Source: an uncultured Gammaproteobacteria bacterium
GTDB taxonomy: Bacteria > Patescibacteriota > Microgenomatia > JAMCZE01
Reading direction: 5' to 3'
DNA: 31,666 nucleotides
Assembly (NCBI GenBank): GCA_964554695.1
Contig: CAZKPQ010000001.1
Coordinates: 1-31,666, forward strand
Each line of letters begins with the position of its first letter. The first letter of the stretch is position 1. The position numbers and the translations under genes were made by a program. Positions 2,953 to 23,717 of the stretch are shown piece by piece. A model generated the notes under the pieces. The model was not told the origin of the DNA. It searched no databases and worked only from the letters and a program-made list of their open reading frames with translations.

Positions 2953-4044
2953 TCAACCCAAAGTTTTTCCTAAAAGCTGCCAAGTCTGGGAAAGAACCTG
3001 TCGCCCACGAGGTATCTGCCTATTAGGGATCCACGGTGTTTGTTTACTTTCTAATACCCGGATTTGTCCAGCCATCTCCTGAACTAATACCACATGATCC
3101 CCCGTCATTAAGTAATTAGCGAGGCTCTCATCATATCGGGCTGCAAGACCAACCAAGGTACTTACGGGTTCAAAAGGTCGGTTACCGCGTCTTATTTCCT
3201 CGGGGAACTGCCCTCCTATGGCATTCAAAATTTCATTTGCGAGAATCTCCCTATTCCCTTCCTCGTAGGTTATCCCTAAAAATTTACATAGCTTGGCTAA
3301 CTCTTCAGCCCGAATGACAATATCCTGTCGGTAAAGTTCACCAGCACCTTGACTTACCACCCCCGATACCGCCGCTACCTTAAAATCCGTTTGGAGAGCC
3401 ATTAAGGGATCAACTGGACGAAGACCCAAATTCCCCACATCCGCCAATTCGACTTCCTGCCTGGATGGCGACAGGACTACATGAAGGACTTTACCCGGAG
3501 CAGTAATCCTAGACATATATCTCTCCGCGGCAGAAAGAAGCTGCTCTGGCTCTCTCCCGAAACCTTCCAACGACGCTCTTGAGCCATACATTACTAGAGC
3601 AGTGTATCTCCTTGTTTTAAGCTCCGAAGGCACGACTACTGTGTCTGGAGCTATGTTTCTACCTAAAACTCTCGTTTCTAGTGGCTTCGCCTCACTAAAT
3701 AATTCGTGGGGAGGTTCAATAAGGTCTCCGACATAATAGGGTTCGCCGTCGGGCGCAATCGCTACTCTTACCGATTTACCACGATCGTTTATGAACTCCC
3801 CTATGGATTCACTTGGTCGAAGCCAGGCAGTTGGCCCAAAACTCCTCTCATGAACCCTTCTCGTAAATTCGTTCTCCGATAACTTAGCATTGATTCCGAC
3901 TATCTCTTGAAGTTTCCTGGCAAATTCTCTGTTTGCTCGATCCTTTGGGCTCTCTGGTTCAGTGCAGGCGGCCAATACCGTTACCAAGCCCCCCATAAGC
4001 GTTAATCGGAGAAAGTCTCTTCGGGGAATTGGATATCGCGGCAC
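2953..4044 (-). CDS. Hypothetical lipoprotein with twin-arginine-like signal peptide
   Basis: N-terminus PRRDFLRLTLMGGLVTVLAAC (RRxFL, hydrophobic core, LAAC lipobox). TGA-TAGAAT lies 6 nt before the GTG. Confidence 0.7.
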   Translation of the reverse strand: MPRYPIPRRDFLRLTLMGGLVTVLAACTEPESPKDRANREFARKLQEIVGINAKLSENEFTRRVHERSFGPTAWLRPSESIGEFINDRGKSVRVAIAPDGEPYYVGDLIEPPHELFSEAKPLETRVLGRNIAPDTVVVPSELKTRRYTALVMYGSRASLEGFGREPEQLLSAAERYMSRITAPGKVLHVVLSPSRQEVELADVGNLGLRPVDPLMALQTDFKVAAVSGVVSQGAGELYRQDIVIRAEELAKLCKFLGITYEEGNREILANEILNAIGGQFPEEIRRGNRPFEPVSTLVGLAARYDESLANYLMTGDHVVLVQEMAGQIRVLESKQTPWIPNRQIPRGRQVLSQTWQLLGKTLG

Positions 4045-13768: not shown

Positions 13769-14878
13769 CTATCGTAAGAAGCCAAGCGGATTAATTCTCG
13801 CTCCGTTCTGAAGAACCTCAAAGTGAAGGTGGGGCCCCGTTGATCTTCCCGTTGACCCCATATCGCCTAGAACCTCTCCCCGACTTACGTTTTGCCCTTC
13901 GGAGACACCAATCTTCGACAAATGACCGTACAAAGTTTTATAGCCATTTCCATGATTCACAATCACATGATACCCATAACCATAATTTTGGTAGATCACG
14001 CTTTCTACTCTCCCCGAGTCGGCAGCTGTTACTGCCGTTCCCGTCTTGTTAGCAATATCCACCCCGCTGTGGTACCAGGCATAATACTGGGTAATTGTTC
14101 CTCCGGTTGGCCACCCAAACTGACCCGTTCCCCCCGAAAAGAGCTGTTGACCTGGGGCCTTAACTACCCTCGGAGCTACTGGAGCCACCGCTGGTGGTTT
14201 ACCTCCTGGAATAACCAGCGTCTGGCCGGCTGCCAAACTAAACGTTTCGTCGTTTACAAACTCATTATAGGCCCAGTCGACAATTGGCTGGGGGGTAGGT
14301 AAGCCATACTTTTTAGCTAAACTCTGGATCGTGTCTCCTGATTTAACTGTCACCACTACTCCCGCAATTGGCGGGATCTTAACTACCTCTCCCGGCTTCA
14401 AAACCTTTTTCTCGGAAATTCCATTCAGATAAGCAATCGAGGCTACGTCCACCACGTTATCTTCTGCACTAAACTTCTCTGCAATCACCGACAGTGTGTC
14501 CCCCGGAGCCACGGTATAGCTAACTATGTCCCTTCGTGGCTTCTTTGACTCGGACGTTTCCGTATCAATATTCGTTATATCTGTCTGTTCTCCAAGAACC
14601 GTCCCCGACGGTGTCGAACTCGTTACCACTTCAGCATTTGCCGCCATCGGATACTGACTGGCAAGAAGTGGCCCACCCGCCGCCCCCACAATCATCAAAA
14701 AAACCATTCCCGTGTGTAGAAATGGCTTCTGATAAGTCCCCCGGCGCGCCTTAAGAACGTCAACTACCAAGCTTTTAGCTCCTTCGAAGTGAGCTCCAAA
14801 AACCGAAAACTTTCGGCCCCCGTACCAGCCGATAGCTCGTCCAAACTCTCCGACTTCCCCAAGTAACTGTCTTCCCAT
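13769..14878 (-). CDS. LysM-repeat M23-family peptidoglycan endopeptidase
   Basis: TM; two LysM repeats (YTVAPGDTLSVIAEKF, VTVKSGDTIQSLAKKY); M23 motifs YHSGVDIA, YGHLS, GSTGRSTGPHLHFEV. Confidence 0.93.
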   Translation of the reverse strand: MGRQLLGEVGEFGRAIGWYGGRKFSVFGAHFEGAKSLVVDVLKARRGTYQKPFLHTGMVFLMIVGAAGGPLLASQYPMAANAEVVTSSTPSGTVLGEQTDITNIDTETSESKKPRRDIVSYTVAPGDTLSVIAEKFSAEDNVVDVASIAYLNGISEKKVLKPGEVVKIPPIAGVVVTVKSGDTIQSLAKKYGLPTPQPIVDWAYNEFVNDETFSLAAGQTLVIPGGKPPAVAPVAPRVVKAPGQQLFSGGTGQFGWPTGGTITQYYAWYHSGVDIANKTGTAVTAADSGRVESVIYQNYGYGYHVIVNHGNGYKTLYGHLSKIGVSEGQNVSRGEVLGDMGSTGRSTGPHLHFEVLQNGARINPLGFLR

Positions 14879-16663: not shown

Positions 16664-18961
16664 TTATGCCTTTATTCCCCGAAGCTTTCGAATAAACCAT
16701 CCCACTGCTCCAGCTCCTAGAAGCGCCGGCAGTACAGCTGTCTCTGCTCCCGTCGCCGGCACATCAGATAATACCTTACCCGTCGGTGGCGGTGGTGTTA
16801 CTCCGGGTACTACCGTCGTCACTACTTTCTGGCAAGCTCCACTACCACCAGCTTGATTACCCTTGTCGTCGATCACATAGCCATTGACTACAAATGTCCC
16901 CGTACCGTCAAAAATATGCGTTAAGGAGTTACCTGTCTGAACGGTCCCCCCGGTTCCGTCCCCGAAGTCAAATTTATACTGCACGATTGACCCTCCCCCG
17001 GTCGTTCGTCCAGAAACCCTCGCCGTTACCGATAGAGGACTGGTTCCCGTCTGCGGCGTTACTACTAGCTCCTCGCAAATCACATTCTGGGAGACTACCG
17101 GTTTACAATCGCTTGAGTCGTCGCATCGATCAAACCCTCCACCATTAACCTCAGTGCATGCTTCGTTTCGACACTCTTTATGTGTAGGCTCTTCGCAATC
17201 ATTGTCACTATTACACTCATTTTGCCCCGGCCCTTCTTTAACCACACAAGCCTCGTCATCGCACTCCTTGTGGGTTACTGGCTTGCACTGGCTATCAGTC
17301 GAGCACTTATCTACTCCCGGTCCATCTTTAATGACACAGGCCTCATCCTCACACTCTTTGTGTTTTGGTCTCTTGCAGTGTGTATCCGTCTCGCATTCGT
17401 TTTGGCCTGGACCAACCTTAACTACACACGCTTCGTCTTCGCACTCTTTGTGAGTTACCGGTGCACAGTCTGCATCAATTAAACATTTGTTCGGCCCTGG
17501 CCCAAACACCTTAGTACAAGCTTCATTTTTACATTCTTTATGGGTTAGGGGTACACAGTCTCCATCAACTAAACACTTATTCTGTCCCGGGCCATCGACG
17601 AGCTTACAGGCAAAATTTACGCACTCTTTATGCTTTACTGGTTTACAATCTACGTCAGACAAACATTTGTCCTGACCAGGTCCGGCAACAATCTTACAAG
17701 CTTGATTAACACACTCGCGGTGTGTTTGAGGCTTACAGTCATTATCAGATAAACATTTATTTGCTCCCGGTCCCGCAACCACCTTACAGGCATAATTAAC
17801 ACACTCTTTGTGAGTAACCGGGGAACAGTCTGCATCGACATTACATTTGTTTTGTCCTGGTCCAGCTACTACTTTACAAGCGTAATTTACACATTCCTTG
17901 TGTGTTACTGGCACGCAGTCGGCATCGACCAAACACTTATTCTGTCCCGGACCATCAACTAATTTACAAGCAAAGTTCACGCATTCTTTGTGCTTCTGGG
18001 GTTTACAGTCTTGGTCATTAGCACAAGTATCTTTCCCTGGCCCATCGACTAGCTTACAAGCATTATTAACGCACTCCTTATGTTTCTGTGGCTTACAGTC
18101 TTTGTTAGTATCACACTTATCTTTTCCTGGCCCCTGGACAATCACACACGCTTCGTTCACACACTCCTTATGCTCTTTACACTCCTTATTTGTCGAACAC
18201 TGGTCTTTCCCCGGTCCGGGTACCAATACACAAGCTTCATTTCTACATTCCTTGTGAACTTTACAATCCTTATTTGAATCGCATTTATCTTGTCCCGCAC
18301 CTGGTACCACTACACATGCTTCATTCCTGCACTCCTTGTGGGTCTTAGGCTTACAATCATTGTTCGACTGACACTGATCAGAACCAGCTCCATTAACTAA
18401 TACGCAAGCCTCATTTTTACACTCTTTGTGTTGCGGTTGAGGACAACCTCCACAATTCCACGCAATACTTCCGCCTCCCCCATTAATCCCAGACATACAA
18501 TCCAACTGGACTACCGAACAACCCGGTACACTGGCTGATTGCCCACAACTATAGTGAACATCATCTCCGTCATCTTCCTTTGTATTTGCGGTACAACTCG
18601 ACTTGTCCGAACAGTAATTGTTATTAATGCTACATCCCCCTGGTGGAAGTAAGCCTACTAACGCCGGACCTTGACCCTCTTCCCAAGCCCTTTTACATTC
18701 CTCAAACGACCCAAACTTATGAACTACCATCTCCGTATCGATTACCGTACCCTTGTCAAAGGCTGTACAAGTAACACTTACTGATCCCTGTGATGGCGGA
18801 TCAGCTGCAAAAATATCCGTTAATGGCGAAGTCGTTACTTGAAGCGAGAAAACGAGTAGAACAAAGGCTATTAAAGCCAGAAGAATTTTTGGGGCAAGAT
18901 CAACCCACCTCTCCCAGAGGATACTAAGACTTGATGCTGCCTTGGAAAATTTTCCCATCAA
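16664..18961 (-). CDS. Exported cysteine-rich tandem-repeat protein with PKD-like domain and LPxTG-like C-terminal anchor
   Basis: N-terminal hydrophobic segment; 15 repeats of HKEC-x4-C-x10-C-x5-C; PKD-like YKFDFGDG...THIFDGTGTFVV; C-terminus VPATG, hydrophobic stretch, RKLRGIKA. 72 Cys counted. Start is TTG 18961 or ATG 18958. Confidence 0.85.
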   Translation of the reverse strand: MMGKFSKAASSLSILWERWVDLAPKILLALIAFVLLVFSLQVTTSPLTDIFAADPPSQGSVSVTCTAFDKGTVIDTEMVVHKFGSFEECKRAWEEGQGPALVGLLPPGGCSINNNYCSDKSSCTANTKEDDGDDVHYSCGQSASVPGCSVVQLDCMSGINGGGGSIAWNCGGCPQPQHKECKNEACVLVNGAGSDQCQSNNDCKPKTHKECRNEACVVVPGAGQDKCDSNKDCKVHKECRNEACVLVPGPGKDQCSTNKECKEHKECVNEACVIVQGPGKDKCDTNKDCKPQKHKECVNNACKLVDGPGKDTCANDQDCKPQKHKECVNFACKLVDGPGQNKCLVDADCVPVTHKECVNYACKVVAGPGQNKCNVDADCSPVTHKECVNYACKVVAGPGANKCLSDNDCKPQTHRECVNQACKIVAGPGQDKCLSDVDCKPVKHKECVNFACKLVDGPGQNKCLVDGDCVPLTHKECKNEACTKVFGPGPNKCLIDADCAPVTHKECEDEACVVKVGPGQNECETDTHCKRPKHKECEDEACVIKDGPGVDKCSTDSQCKPVTHKECDDEACVVKEGPGQNECNSDNDCEEPTHKECRNEACTEVNGGGFDRCDDSSDCKPVVSQNVICEELVVTPQTGTSPLSVTARVSGRTTGGGSIVQYKFDFGDGTGGTVQTGNSLTHIFDGTGTFVVNGYVIDDKGNQAGGSGACQKVVTTVVPGVTPPPPTGKVLSDVPATGAETAVLPALLGAGAVGWFIRKLRGIKA
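17105..18430 (-). repeat. 15 coding tandem repeats of 84-90 bp (28-30 aa)
   Basis: From the first His (18428-18430) to the last Cys (17105-17107); consensus HKECxNxACxxVxGPGxN/DxCxxDxDCxPxT. Confidence 0.95.
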
Positions 18962-19067
18962 GTTGTATCGGCAGAAGTCAGCTTCCCAAGTTCAATTTAA
19001 CCGAACTTCTTAAGAATTCCGTATGAAAAACTTTTTCAGTTTTTCGTTATTAAATTATTTGTATCAG

Positions 19068-19096
19068 ATTATATATGATAATTTGCGTCTTTGCAA
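19068..19096 (-). promoter_or_regulatory. Near-consensus sigma70 promoter of the Cys-repeat gene (TTGCAA-N17-TATAAT)
   Basis: ttgcaa at 19091-19096 and attata at 19068-19073; implies a 5' UTR of about 100 nt. Confidence 0.7.
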
Positions 19097-19132
19097 CAAT
19101 CTCTTATTAATGTTTCGACCGTGAAAAAAAAT

Positions 19133-19162
19133 TTGACAAAATCTTTCTCTCCGTGTTACCAC
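19133..19162 (+). promoter_or_regulatory. Candidate plus-strand promoter (TTGACA-N18-TACCAC, preceded by TG)
   Basis: Perfect -35 at 19133-19138; the -10 is non-consensus (lacks the final T). Supported indirectly by a plus-strand terminator about 100 nt downstream. Confidence 0.45.
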
Positions 19163-19167
19163 TTATT

Positions 19168-19261
19168 TCAAGTGTTTTGGGCCTCTACTGCCTAGGGGCC
19201 AAAAACCAATCAAGGCATCACTTTTCGAGACTCTCAGGCTGCGGAAGTGATGCTTTTTTTT
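19168..19261 (+). ncRNA. Putative two-hairpin small RNA (candidate antisense regulator or antitoxin)
   Basis: Upstream promoter; hairpin TTTTGGGCCTCT/AGGGGCCAAAA (~19176-19204); terminator stem 19215-19253 plus 8 T. No plus-strand gene upstream within ~8.6 kb that would need this terminator. 5' end estimated. Confidence 0.5.
19215..19261 (+). terminator. Intrinsic terminator (strong on +, possibly bidirectional)
   Basis: GCATCACTT(TTCG)...(CGG)AAGTGATGC: 9 Watson-Crick bp plus G-U, followed by TTTTTTTT at 19254-19261. Confidence 0.75.
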
Positions 19262-19276
19262 GGCAAAACCTCAAAA

Positions 19277-19450
19277 TTACAGCGTGGTCATCGTGATAAT
19301 CTCTGACCCTCGCTGGGACAGTAACTTCCCAACTTGCTTCGAAACTAATCCTTCCTTAAAAGAAACTACTCTCGCCTCTCTAGCCTGAAGGGCAAGTCTC
19401 CTCCCAAGCCATCTTCGAACTTTTATCCAAAACTTTGCTTTATACGCCAT
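19277..19450 (-). CDS. Small cationic protein, 57 aa (below ORF-track cutoff); candidate toxin or regulatory peptide
   Basis: Manual translation MAYKAKFWIKVRRWLGRRLALQAREARVVSFKEGLVSKQVGKLLSQRGSEIITMTTL*; 13 K/R vs 3 E; own promoter upstream and a hairpin just downstream. Confidence 0.45.
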   Translation of the reverse strand: MAYKAKFWIKVRRWLGRRLALQAREARVVSFKEGLVSKQVGKLLSQRGSEIITMTTL

Positions 19451-19477
19451 AGGTTAATGTCTCAGGCTGCGAAGGAA

Positions 19478-19505
19478 ATCATAACTCAATTGAATGATTT
19501 GTCAA
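19478..19505 (-). promoter_or_regulatory. Sigma70 promoter (TTGACA-N16-TATGAT) for the 57-aa ORF
   Basis: tgtcaa at 19500-19505 and atcata at 19478-19483; predicted TSS about 19470-19472. Confidence 0.65.
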
Positions 19506-19639
19506 GACCTGTAGTCTAACATCTATACACTACAAGATATGCCCATAGTAAAGAGAAAGGGGGGAGGCTGTTACAGCAAGCTATTTATAACAAGAGGCGA
19601 CTCTCTCTACTCTGTGGACAAATTGAGGAATTCCCAAAA

Positions 19640-20935
19640 CTATATGGAGATATCGCTTAGTGAGCTCAGGGTCTCGGAAGTTAGAATATTCTTGAAACCC
19701 AACTTCTTTGCTTCCTTAACCCTTCTTGGAAGTGAGTTTACTTTTCTGACTGTCCCCAATAAATCAAGCTCCCCTATTGCCAAAGTTTTAGGCGGAACGG
19801 GTCTATCCTTGAAGGAAGAAATGATTGCTAGAGCAATTGGTAAGTCTGCTGCCGGCTCTGTTATCGTTAATCCCCCCGCCACCGAAACATAGATATCTTC
19901 TTTATACAGGGGTGCCGACAGTCGCTTCTGAATAATGGCTACAATGGTCTGTAATCGACTATTAGAGATACCCGTCGCCACTCTCCGAGGGGCTGGTAAT
20001 GGCGTCTGGGTTACCAAAGCTTGGACCTCAACTAGTAGCGGCCGCATTCCCTCCATCGTGATTGTCATACACGCGCCCGGCTGTCCCTGACTCTTATTGT
20101 CAGTAAATAGACTTTGTAAATCAGCCACTTCCCGAAGGCCCCCATCACTCATTTCTAATACTCCTACCTCATCAGTTGGCCCAAACCTGTTCTTAGTACT
20201 TCTAATTATCCGTAAGGAGGTAAATCTCTCACCCTCAATACTAATAATAGTATCAACTGCATGTTCTAGTACTTTTGGCCCGGCTATACTACCCTCTTTT
20301 GTAACATGCCCCACAATAAATGTCGGTATCCCTAATTGTTTTACTACCCCGATTACTCTTGCCGCCGACTCTCGTACTTGTCCGACCGTCCCTGCCATAC
20401 CGGCTAGTTCGGTTGTCGCTAGAGTCTGAATCGAGTCAATAATGACTAGCCTAATATTTTTATCAGCCTGTATCTGCCCAACCACCCGATCAACATCATT
20501 TGTCTCCAAAACGCTCAAATTCGGAAGTTGAGCCCCTAATCTCTCCGCCCGAAGCTTGATCTGACCAGCAGACTCCTCGCCCGCCACATACAACACTTCC
20601 CCCCTCCACGCCCTCGCTACCTCAAGAAGAAGCGTCGATTTCCCTACCCCTGGTTCACCTGACAACAACACTACCATTCCTCCCACCACCCCGCCTCCTA
20701 GAACCATGTCAAGTTCTGCGAGTCCCGTTGACTGTCTAGTTAAAACTCCCGCCTCTACCCCCGAAAGCCGAACTAACCGGGAAGACCCGCCCTCTCTAAG
20801 AGCCTTCGTCTTTGGCGCTTCGCTGATCTCCTCCACAAAACTATTCCAGCTTCCACAGTTAGGACACCGGCCTAACTGTCCTGGGCTCTTGTAGCCGCAC
20901 TGTTGACACACAAAAACCGAGGACTTCTTCGCCAT
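19640..20935 (-). CDS. radA: DNA repair protein RadA/Sms
   Basis: C4 zinc finger CQQCG...RCPNCGSWNS, Walker A GEPGVGKS, IIDSIQT, GHVTKEGSIAGPKVLEHAVD, KNRFG, Lon-like C-domain EVQALV...AADLPIALAI. Confidence 0.98.
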   Translation of the reverse strand: MAKKSSVFVCQQCGYKSPGQLGRCPNCGSWNSFVEEISEAPKTKALREGGSSRLVRLSGVEAGVLTRQSTGLAELDMVLGGGVVGGMVVLLSGEPGVGKSTLLLEVARAWRGEVLYVAGEESAGQIKLRAERLGAQLPNLSVLETNDVDRVVGQIQADKNIRLVIIDSIQTLATTELAGMAGTVGQVRESAARVIGVVKQLGIPTFIVGHVTKEGSIAGPKVLEHAVDTIISIEGERFTSLRIIRSTKNRFGPTDEVGVLEMSDGGLREVADLQSLFTDNKSQGQPGACMTITMEGMRPLLVEVQALVTQTPLPAPRRVATGISNSRLQTIVAIIQKRLSAPLYKEDIYVSVAGGLTITEPAADLPIALAIISSFKDRPVPPKTLAIGELDLLGTVRKVNSLPRRVKEAKKLGFKNILTSETLSSLSDISI

Positions 20936-22265: not shown

Positions 22266-23717
22266 CTATCTAACACTTAATCGATCGATATCCAGTTCAT
22301 ATACTCCTACAAACTCCTCGTCAAGTGGCTTTTTAAATCTTGCCAGCTCCTTTAAAACTGACTCCATTCCCGCATACTGCCCCCCCCGTGAGACAAAGTA
22401 AACCGCAAGTCCGCTCTCCCTGAACTGTTTATTCCTCACAAAGGCCGGTAACAGGTCCAAATAGTAAACCCTCAGGTTAGTTGCTTTATCTAGGTAAACA
22501 AACATCGCCCCCTCTGGGTTCCCCGTATCATTACGAACAAACACTACTCCCGGCCTTACTTTGCTGCGCCTCTTCAAAAAATCTGCTGCCTCCTTCACTC
22601 CATACCCGCTCGAAAATCCCTCAAAATATTGTGACAGGTCCCTCTTTATAGGCGAAAGGTTGCTAAATGTCTGGTAAAAATTAAGTGGCCAAACACCTAG
22701 CCAAACTGCCTCTATCGCTAATAATAAGGCCATGCCCATGCCCAGAAGCTTATTTTTTAGGTAAACCCTCCCCAGTCCAACCCCCGCTACTATTAATAGT
22801 AGCGGCAATGTCCAGACTATATACCGACTTGTTATATCTCGGGTAACTAATATCATAAGTACCACCGGTAGCCCAAACCACATCCCCAGTAAAATTCCCT
22901 CCCGTCGTCTAGTCCTCAAACCTACTATTAGTAATAGTAAGGCTGGCGAAAGAGTCACCAGCCAGACCAGAACTCTAACTAAATTGTCCCACCACAAGCC
23001 CCAAGGTAGTTGTATAAGTTCGTCCGCTGTTAAAACCCACCTCTCCGAAGGCGTTTGCATCGCCGGATGGCTAACAATTGGTATTATGAGCAAAGTAAAA
23101 ACGACCACTGCTATTACCAAGTCTTTCAAGGCTTCCGTCACCGATTTATCCCTCCGCCAAGCAATCAATATTCTTGTAATTACCATCGGCAATATCATTA
23201 GAAGCACCGTTGCCTTAATCCAATAACCCACCGCCAGTATTCCTCCAATTGCGACTCCCCTAAGCCACTTTTGTCGCGGTCCCCAAAGGCAACATAGGAA
23301 AAGTAATGGGTACAATATTAAAAGGTGGGGCTCTGCCAAAGCCATCTTCTCGTAAAAGAGAGTTAAAGGATTTGCGATCAAAACTACCGCTACCCAATCG
23401 ATAACACTCTCACCATAAAGTTTCCGAGCTATTATTAACCCCAAGCCAAATGCGACCGTTGAGTATCCAATCGCAAGTGTTCTCCCAGCCTCTACCGGAT
23501 CGCCCGGCCATACGAGCCAAGGACTATAAAGAATTGCAATTCCTGGCGGTCGCTGATCAAGTCTAAGCGTGTAATCCCAAGTACCCTGATTGCTAAAGAT
23601 AATTTTCCCCCAGTGCAAGTAGCTTGCCTCATCATTAAAAATTGGCACCGATCCCATAAAAAGACCCCGAGAAATTAGAAAAACCATTACCCATAGAGTG
23701 ATTCTTTTAGTCATCAT
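22266..23717 (-). CDS. Polytopic GT-C glycosyltransferase (GT39/PMT- or ArnT-like)
   Basis: IFNDEASYLHWG, DQRPPG, many TM segments, NPLTLFYEKMALAEP, YWIKAT, SRYIVWTLP. Confidence 0.8.
   Translation of the reverse strand: MMTKRITLWVMVFLISRGLFMGSVPIFNDEASYLHWGKIIFSNQGTWDYTLRLDQRPPGIAILYSPWLVWPGDPVEAGRTLAIGYSTVAFGLGLIIARKLYGESVIDWVAVVLIANPLTLFYEKMALAEPHLLILYPLLFLCCLWGPRQKWLRGVAIGGILAVGYWIKATVLLMILPMVITRILIAWRRDKSVTEALKDLVIAVVVFTLLIIPIVSHPAMQTPSERWVLTADELIQLPWGLWWDNLVRVLVWLVTLSPALLLLIVGLRTRRREGILLGMWFGLPVVLMILVTRDITSRYIVWTLPLLLIVAGVGLGRVYLKNKLLGMGMALLLAIEAVWLGVWPLNFYQTFSNLSPIKRDLSQYFEGFSSGYGVKEAADFLKRRSKVRPGVVFVRNDTGNPEGAMFVYLDKATNLRVYYLDLLPAFVRNKQFRESGLAVYFVSRGGQYAGMESVLKELARFKKPLDEEFVGVYELDIDRLSVR

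Follow-up and report, generated by a model that had tools for sequence, protein, structure and literature searches.

A conserved structured RNA and a convergent micro-protein gene beside radA in Microgenomatia: a candidate trans-acting antisense regulator

The stretch of DNA analyzed here (the window) comprises positions 1 to 31,666, forward strand, of contig CAZKPQ010000001.1 in GenBank assembly GCA_964554695.1, which is deposited as an uncultured Gammaproteobacteria bacterium and placed by GTDB in the Patescibacteriota, class Microgenomatia. In the window, the region between radA and the gene of a 765-amino acid (aa) Cys-rich repeat protein is occupied by two convergent elements, a small RNA (sRNA) gene on the plus strand and a 57-aa open reading frame (ORF) on the minus strand (Table 1). 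A sequence-only reading of the window had proposed that the two form an antisense-controlled module, possibly of the toxin-antitoxin (TA) type. As described below, the convergent sRNA and small cationic protein gene do form a conserved pair that apparently shares a terminator, and the RNA matches the 5′ leaders of several further genes, among them lexA.

Comparative evidence argues that the plus-strand unit is a genuine conserved structured RNA. The plus-strand TTGACA at 19133, the two hairpins and the run of eight U residues described by the sequence-only reading are all present, and the unit folds with a z-score of −4.3. Rfam gave no match in the region, either at the gathering threshold or at E ≤ 10. 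A DNA search revealed that 14 of 15 same-family genomes, spread over 12 genera, match the window at ~19113-19263, a span that covers the sRNA and its promoter and not the DNA of the ORF. Further, when covariance model R2 was searched against 151 sampled genomes of the class (the family set being 16 genomes), exactly one full-length copy per genome was found in 63 of the 151, and all seven genomes (7/7) were matched in each of four families.

In hairpin 1, compensatory double changes affect 13 of the 14 pairs, 93.8% of the cells in the family alignment are paired, and none of 500 shuffles reached the observed covariation; its stem varies freely, and the loop reads CUGCC throughout the family and CUGYC in most sequences of the class. 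Hairpin 2 and its U-run are near-invariant within the family. Across the class, the hairpin varies yet stays paired, with a basal stem close to one pattern (GCAUYRCU... paired with ...AGURAUGC), an inner stem UCG/CGR (here UCG/CGG, plus AG/CU) in which the bulged G is kept, and a variable apical part of 8 to ~40 nucleotides (nt). Because the cells of hairpin 2 across the class comprise 303 Watson-Crick and 80 G-U pairs but only 3 A-C combinations, the structure is evidently selected on the plus strand; in the same orientation, hairpin 1 has 34 G-U versus 15 A-C cells. Hairpin 2 is probably the intrinsic terminator of the sRNA and, read backwards, probably also that of the convergent ORF. Its loop had been described as complementary to the 5′ end of the ORF mRNA; the complementarity stands, but the loop is not 21 nt long, the class-wide variation revealing the inner stem and a 9-nt apical loop.

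Table 1. Coordinates of the features at the locus and of leader matches elsewhere in the same genome (handle G000); positions without a contig handle are those of the window, and RNA ends, transcription starts and pairings are predictions
Feature	Coordinates	Strand	Remarks
sRNA gene, ~94 nt	19168..19261	+	hairpin 1, A-rich linker, hairpin 2 as terminator, U8; model R2, 97.5 bits
Hairpin 1	19174..19206	+	14-bp stem, loop CUGCC at 19188-19192; supported by covariation
Hairpin 2 and U-run	19212..19261	+	basal stem 19215-19223/19245-19253, inner stem with bulged G, 9-nt apical loop, T8 at 19254-19261
sRNA seed region	19225..19245	+	apical loop and flanking inner-stem bases; holds the 12-mer at 19232-19243
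sRNA promoter	19113..19162	+	aligned block kept in 14 family relatives
57-aa basic micro-protein gene	19277..19450	−	stop codon 19277-19279; homologous ORFs in all 14 sRNA-carrying relatives
Leader copy of the anti-sRNA sequence	19460..19473	−	12 Watson-Crick pairs, A-U and G-U; ends 9 nt before the AUG
Micro-protein gene promoter and conserved upstream block	19478..19552	−	−35 at 19500-19505, −10 at 19478-19483
lexA leader match	G000 C78:2260-2276		17 nt: 12 exact, G-U, 4
12-mer-type match, leader of ClpB-like AAA+ gene	G000:C3:22860-22873		~11 nt after the −10, following a CIRCE-like operator
12-mer copy, leader of membrane-protein gene	C35:2109-2120		17 nt before the GTG start, beside AGGAGG
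radA	19640-20935	−	confirmed by Pfam
765-aa Cys-rich repeat protein gene	16664-18961	−	

DNA similarity among the relatives begins at ~19113. The sRNA promoter region is made up of a conserved CGTGA with an A-run, the −35 element TTGACA (19133-19138), an 18-nt spacer ending in TGT and the −10 element TACCAC (19157-19162). In the aligned family copies, TTGACA after the A-run is invariant, and the −10 region is a conserved extended −10 of the form TGn-TAnnnn; the −10 element, which had been called weak, is not simply weak. Class-wide, a perfect TTGACA lies at the expected distance before the sRNA in all 21 loci that had upstream sequence. The transcription start and the RNA ends are predictions. 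The block CG(A/T)(C/G)CGTGA plus A-run directly 5′ of the sRNA −35 element is kept in family f1 and might be an UP element or the site of an unknown factor.

On the minus strand, the TTGACA-N16-TATGAT promoter noted by the sequence-only reading is present at 19505..19478 and is the best site of a 4-kb promoter scan, with 11 of 12 consensus positions matched. Upstream of the micro-protein gene, four relatives show weak DNA matches reaching ~19498-19582, and in several relatives a TCTTGACA-N17-TATAnT promoter precedes the homologous ORF. In several relatives, the distance from that promoter to the start codon is just 6-12 nt, so that their micro-protein mRNAs would have no leader or almost none.

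The conservation of the 57-aa ORF argues that it is a real micro-protein gene. As had been described, the peptide has a net charge of +10 and, because its highest 19-residue Kyte-Doolittle mean is only 0.38, no transmembrane (TM) segment. By tblastn, the ORF was found in 14/14 family relatives with the sRNA element, so that its conservation in related genomes, on which the sequence-only reading depended, was borne out; both ends are conserved (MxxKANxxKKxRRWL at the N terminus and SxQVGKLLxxRGSEIITMTTL at the C terminus), and the indels between them are in frame. In one relative, G011, the gene (L012:773-927) is frameshifted in or beside an A-run, reflecting either an assembly error or a pseudogene. 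Database homologues of the micro-protein form 30 clusters at 90% identity and 16 at 50%, which their sources name "hypothetical protein" (Patescibacteria or Microgenomates bacteria), with the exception of one RelE label. Pfam assigned it to no family and gave merely a weak, sub-threshold HicB match, and NCBIfam and ESM Atlas returned nothing for it.

The micro-protein gene and the sRNA also occur together beyond the family. Where similar small ORFs were found in the other families examined, they lie on the opposite strand, end −1 to 125 nt past the sRNA terminator and carry C-terminal motifs like ..EQVKKLLxxxDQKIILMVRG or ..GLSIPVFTL. A class-wide profile search gave confident micro-protein matches in five families, with 7/7 genomes in each of two, and every confident match in an sRNA-bearing genome is convergent with the sRNA and lies just past its terminator. 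Families f29 and f22 have the sRNA without a detectable adjacent micro-protein copy. Half of the family relatives (7 of 14) have ~265-1,190 nt between the micro-protein gene and the sRNA, and in most of these seven the intervening DNA carries one to three additional minus-strand ORFs. What stays constant is the position of the sRNA at the end of, and facing, the radA/micro-protein transcription unit, and several other families also have radA close by.

The exact 12-nt direct repeat that the sequence-only reading had found at 19232-19243 and 19460-19471 is present, and its leader copy begins at about the predicted +1 of the micro-protein mRNA. In this genome, the sRNA loop is thus perfectly complementary to the predicted 5′ end of that mRNA. 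However, the 12-mer precedes the micro-protein ORF in this genome only, and no comparable complementarity to the hairpin 2 loop was found before the ORF in the relatives examined. Because the 12-mer is not co-conserved at this position, a dedicated, conserved two-gene antisense switch is unsupported. What is left of the antisense-controlled module as originally conceived is a real gene pair with 5′ complementarity here; its repeat is not conserved, and the sRNA has matches in unrelated leaders.

The distribution of these matches is non-random. The antisense 12-mer, CGCAGCCTGAGA, occurs four times in the 0.79-Mb genome, compared with 0.09 expected. Across the 16 family genomes, 11 copies lie outside the sRNA gene itself (∼1.7 expected), whereas the backwards control pattern has 0 matches. 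Ten of the 11 copies are on the sense strand, in the leader or at the first codons of a gene, and the eleventh, at a tRNA 3′ end, is probably due to chance. Genes with sense-strand copies include lexA (two genera), an M23 peptidase gene (one genus) and a 199-aa gene of G011 (28-nt match), and the extra copy in G002 carries the loop variant of G002 itself. The matches run past the 12-mer by differing lengths (14, 16, 19-20 and 28 nt) and in both directions, always tracking the sRNA sequence, which argues for RNA-RNA pairing rather than a fixed DNA operator. Because antisense 12-mers or longer matches are found in the ClpB-like, membrane-protein, lexA and M23 peptidase leaders, the RNA looks like a multi-target trans-acting regulator. 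Only the long exact matches are statistically clean; RNAduplex energies on long windows were inflated by long internal loops and were not used as evidence.

Some of these sites have additional features. In the ClpB-like leader, an inverted repeat resembling CIRCE (controlling inverted repeat of chaperone expression), TAGCACTC-N9-TAGTGCTAA (G000:C3 ~22830-22858; L093 ~1469-1497), overlaps the promoter just before the 12-mer, and this adjacency suggests HrcA-type heat-shock control of the gene in addition to control by the sRNA. ClpB-type genes were found, with the query used, in 3 of the 16 family genomes, and the gene of G013 has no site. In G011, a 28-35-nt antisense partial copy of the sRNA 3′ half (C9 ~13885-13923; L085:1473-1512) sits 27 nt 5′ of the 199-aa gene, which is inserted between the micro-protein gene and the sRNA. 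At two places, in G003 (C119 ~3555-3625; L095, 12 nt) and G002 (C4 ~262520-262590; L103, 19 nt), a strong terminator hairpin comes directly after a sequence complementary to the loop of the genome's own sRNA, and the next ~100 nt contain no ORF; these units could be short decoy or "sponge" transcripts.

We found lexA genes in all 16 family genomes, and in six of them (five genera) the lexA leader matches the loop of the genome's own sRNA. In G000, G013, G010, G003 and G007, the complementarity to the loop region extends over 17-22 nt and scores 20-24, compared with a shuffled maximum of 14-17; in G001, the match is gapped (9+8). One seed position is variable in the family, and the two partners change together: where the sRNA has A (G001 and G007), the lexA leader has U, and where the sRNA has U (G000, G013, G010 and G003), the leader has A. 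Further, in family f22 (one genus, three genomes), the sRNA loop differs, and the lexA leader contains its exact 14-nt complement a few bases after the −10 element. These co-changes of seed and target represent few independent events.

Two further features of the lexA leaders and promoters were noted. About 15 nt before the lexA start in this genome, the hairpin CCUAAG-AAGGCAG-CUUAGG (G000:C78 ~2307-2325) presents GGCAG, the complement of the hairpin 1 loop CUGCC; GGCAG also occurs in the lexA leader of G010 and is too short for statistics. Pairing of the hairpin 1 loop with leaders, for which there are 5-7-nt matches, would thus be speculation. The lexA promoters of the class (e.g., L118 ~1380-1420, L139-L143 and L145-L174) share the spacer motif TTCGGGTT..TTTGG between −35 and −10, and those of family f1 have the spacer motif TTCGTnTAT; these spacer motifs are candidate LexA operators.

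The observed conservation, structure and strand of the RNA, the conservation of its promoter, the non-random target-like matches and the co-variation with lexA leaders lead us to a reading of the locus as a trans-acting antisense sRNA, with its seed in the apex of the terminator hairpin, and a convergent micro-protein gene, to which we assign a probability of about 0.7. In the mechanism that we propose, the ~94-nt sRNA would have a near-consensus promoter of its own, and its hairpin and U-run would end transcription. Pairing with complementary sequence at or close to a target mRNA's 5′ end would begin at the 9-nt apical loop of the terminator hairpin, and the duplex would then grow to 12-22 bp as the weak inner stem opens. 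In this genome, the predicted targets are the mRNAs of the micro-protein, the ClpB-like chaperone and the membrane protein, where the site abuts the ribosome-binding site, together with the lexA leader. Pairing may alter translation and/or mRNA stability, through ribosome access or through 5′-end-dependent or double-strand-specific decay; the predicted membrane-protein and micro-protein sites are close to the start (9 nt from the AUG in the micro-protein mRNA). The micro-protein may be the sRNA's partner or one of its targets of long standing. If the sRNA terminator serves both genes, as it apparently does, the micro-protein mRNA would be complementary to the sRNA also over the hairpin at its 3′ end, in the way of antisense pairs that overlap at their 3′ ends.

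Several results weigh against this reading or limit its reach. In ~40 other genomes (~20 families), lexA complementarity is at background, and the leaders are mostly short; because complementarity is confined to part of f1 and one genus of f22, lexA appears to be a lineage-restricted and not a universal target. Similarly, families f29 and f7 (10 genomes) have no extra 12-mer copies, and the targets found therefore do not explain a class-wide function. A wobble-tolerant genome scan gave 61 matches versus 40 with the reversed seed and thus no separation. The near-invariance of the hairpin 2 basal stem and the hairpin 1 loop points to an additional constraint, perhaps binding of a protein or another partner, and AlphaFold modeled the micro-protein as a single low-confidence helix (predicted local distance difference test score, pLDDT, of 66). 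In addition, a search for RNA-seq data turned up only DNA-like runs or fragments of relatives; the only "RNA" run with related words looks like DNA and spans just the conserved hairpin of the relatives. Class-wide conservation of the RNA might be due to the loop of hairpin 1, which is invariant, to the internal loop of hairpin 2 or to the micro-protein encoded alongside. Going further, it is conceivable, though we would not bet on it, that the riboregulator and the micro-protein, common to many families of this class of reduced genomes, constitute a hitherto unknown layer of post-transcriptional control, in which the micro-protein is a dedicated partner of the RNA, the RNA tunes lexA and stress genes through pairing at their mRNA 5′ ends, and lineage-specific decoys such as those of G002 and G003 titrate it.

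Other explanations have to be weighed against the same data. The micro-protein might bind the sRNA, for example at the loop of hairpin 1, which is invariant, or at the internal loop of hairpin 2, and serve as its dedicated chaperone or stabilize kissing complexes between RNAs, in the manner of Rop/Rom or FinO. This proposal is compatible with a trans-acting sRNA and would account for the strict adjacency of both genes in at least five families, the net charge of +10 with a predicted helical N terminus, and RNA elements that are invariant beyond the needs of folding. Yet adjacency fits a relation of regulator and target equally well, the micro-protein resembles no RNA-binding family in Pfam, NCBIfam or ESM Atlas, its structure model is of low confidence, and f29 and f22 have the sRNA without a detectable micro-protein; we therefore regard such a ribonucleoprotein as possible but doubtful. 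That the 57-aa peptide is the toxin of a type I TA system, its mRNA being restrained by an sRNA that faces it, is complementary to its 5′ end and shares its terminator, is improbable. The convergent arrangement, the small ORF and a bidirectional terminator that both genes apparently share do recall such systems, as does the direct repeat that would give 12-14 bp of pairing 9 nt before the AUG in this genome, and the Trp/Arg/Lys-rich N terminus would, on sequence alone, permit membrane activity. However, the peptide lacks any hydrophobic or TM segment, the 5′ repeat is missing before the ORF in the relatives examined, and the module is single-copy, keeps a stable neighborhood beside radA and was present in every genome sampled from several families, where type I TA loci are typically patchy, multi-copy or mobile; moreover, the sRNA matches unrelated leaders, including that of lexA, and is present in families where no adjacent small ORF was detected. 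The toxin-antitoxin interpretation offered by the sequence-only reading is accordingly not sustained.

It is very unlikely that some unknown transcription factor uses the 12-mer copies as DNA operators and that the copy in the sRNA gene is a coincidence. Their position ~6 to 18 nt downstream of the −10 is typical for a repressor, and lexA is usually autoregulated, but the matches exceed the 12-mer variably and always along the sRNA sequence, the sites track genome-specific loop variants, including the unrelated loop of f22, all ten non-tRNA sites are on the sense strand, and the copy within the sRNA gene belongs to an RNA element whose structure is under selection. We give equally little credence to the idea that there is no independent sRNA and that the block is the bidirectional terminator and 3′-untranslated structure of the minus-strand radA/micro-protein operon. 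A hairpin flanked by A- and U-runs can end transcripts of both strands, and this one always lies at the end of the minus-strand operon; against this, G-U pairs favor the plus strand (80 versus 3 in hairpin 2 and 34 versus 15 in hairpin 1), the minus-strand hairpin would be mismatched in many families, and a perfect −35 element is kept at a fixed distance on the plus strand. Finally, because RF00169 finds nothing in the family (0/16) and only one weak match among the 151 class genomes, we considered whether the RNA is a divergent signal recognition particle (SRP, 4.5S) RNA of the class, which its length of ~95-115 nt and single copy per genome would allow. This identity is scarcely credible and was rejected on the basis of the G084 control and the class-wide alignment: the GGAA of hairpin 2 is not conserved (GGUA or GGUG elsewhere), there is no AGCA/AGG loop pair, the RNA forms two hairpins and not one long hairpin, and the weak RF00169 match of G084 has a canonical helix-8 motif and is unmatched by R2. 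Scanning for helix-8 motifs with loose regex and other patterns gave no useful information, and 6S RNA was not found. The single weak match (G084:C50:2725-2817; L047:1501-1593) scores 26.8 bits, and because the other 150 of the 151 genomes are unmatched, the SRP RNA of the class seems too divergent for RF00169 or for the search filters.

Comparison with known systems also favors a trans-acting sRNA. Trans-acting base-pairing sRNAs with a hairpin-loop seed include RsaE and the RNAIII hairpins of Staphylococcus, and the antisense RNAs CopA and RNA I start pairing by loop-loop or loop-linear contacts. Like trans-acting sRNAs, the RNA described here would be a short independent unit with an intrinsic terminator, an exposed loop, several 5′-leader targets and co-variation of seed and target; unlike in them, the seed lies in the apex of the terminator hairpin itself, and the sites are at or near the predicted mRNA 5′ end, often far from the start codon. 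The par locus of pAD1 (Fst, RNA I/RNA II) and the Bacillus pairs txpA/RatA and bsrG/SR4 are type I TA systems, the latter overlapping at their 3′ ends. They share with our locus the convergent small ORF and sRNA, a terminator that apparently serves both and, as far as this genome is concerned, a direct repeat just upstream of the start codon. Our locus differs by a peptide that lacks a hydrophobic or TM segment, by a 5′ repeat that relatives do not retain, by its single copy in a stable neighborhood and by the other targets predicted for the sRNA. In Escherichia coli, istR-1/tisB likewise ties an sRNA to the LexA regulon, a tie made here by the predicted pairing with lexA and paralleled by the location beside the DNA repair gene radA; here, however, the predicted target is the lexA leader itself and not a LexA-controlled toxin gene, and no LexA box was recognized at the promoter of the sRNA. 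Rop/Rom of ColE1 and FinO of the F plasmids (FinO/FinP) are small proteins that aid antisense RNA pairing, and, as at our locus, the gene of a small basic protein lies beside that of an antisense RNA. Unlike in these cases, RNA binding by the micro-protein is purely hypothetical, and it has no sequence or confident structural similarity to them.

Overall, the locus is best fitted by a new family of putative trans-acting base-pairing sRNAs coupled to a conserved micro-protein gene. We found no published description of this sRNA/micro-protein locus, and neither the literature nor Rfam 15 yielded a described regulatory sRNA for bacteria of the candidate phyla radiation (CPR), or one that matches this RNA. 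The unpublished genome G081 was not relied on for any conclusion. CPR bacteria, or Patescibacteria, have very small genomes with few recognizable regulators, and an sRNA that is easily recognized, single-copy in 63 of 151 class genomes and linked to concrete predicted targets that can be tested (lexA leaders of two lineages whose seeds differ, a ClpB-like chaperone and the neighboring micro-protein) would, if these hold, provide a first handle on how these uncultivated bacteria control genes after transcription and how they control the SOS repressor. Annotation pipelines would gain an RNA family that is not yet catalogued, together with a micro-protein family.

Beyond the sRNA and the micro-protein gene, a promoter-like TTGCAA-N17-TATAAT (10/12) is present on the minus strand of the window at 19054-19096, divergent from the sRNA promoter, and presumably serves the gene of the 765-aa Cys-rich repeat protein.

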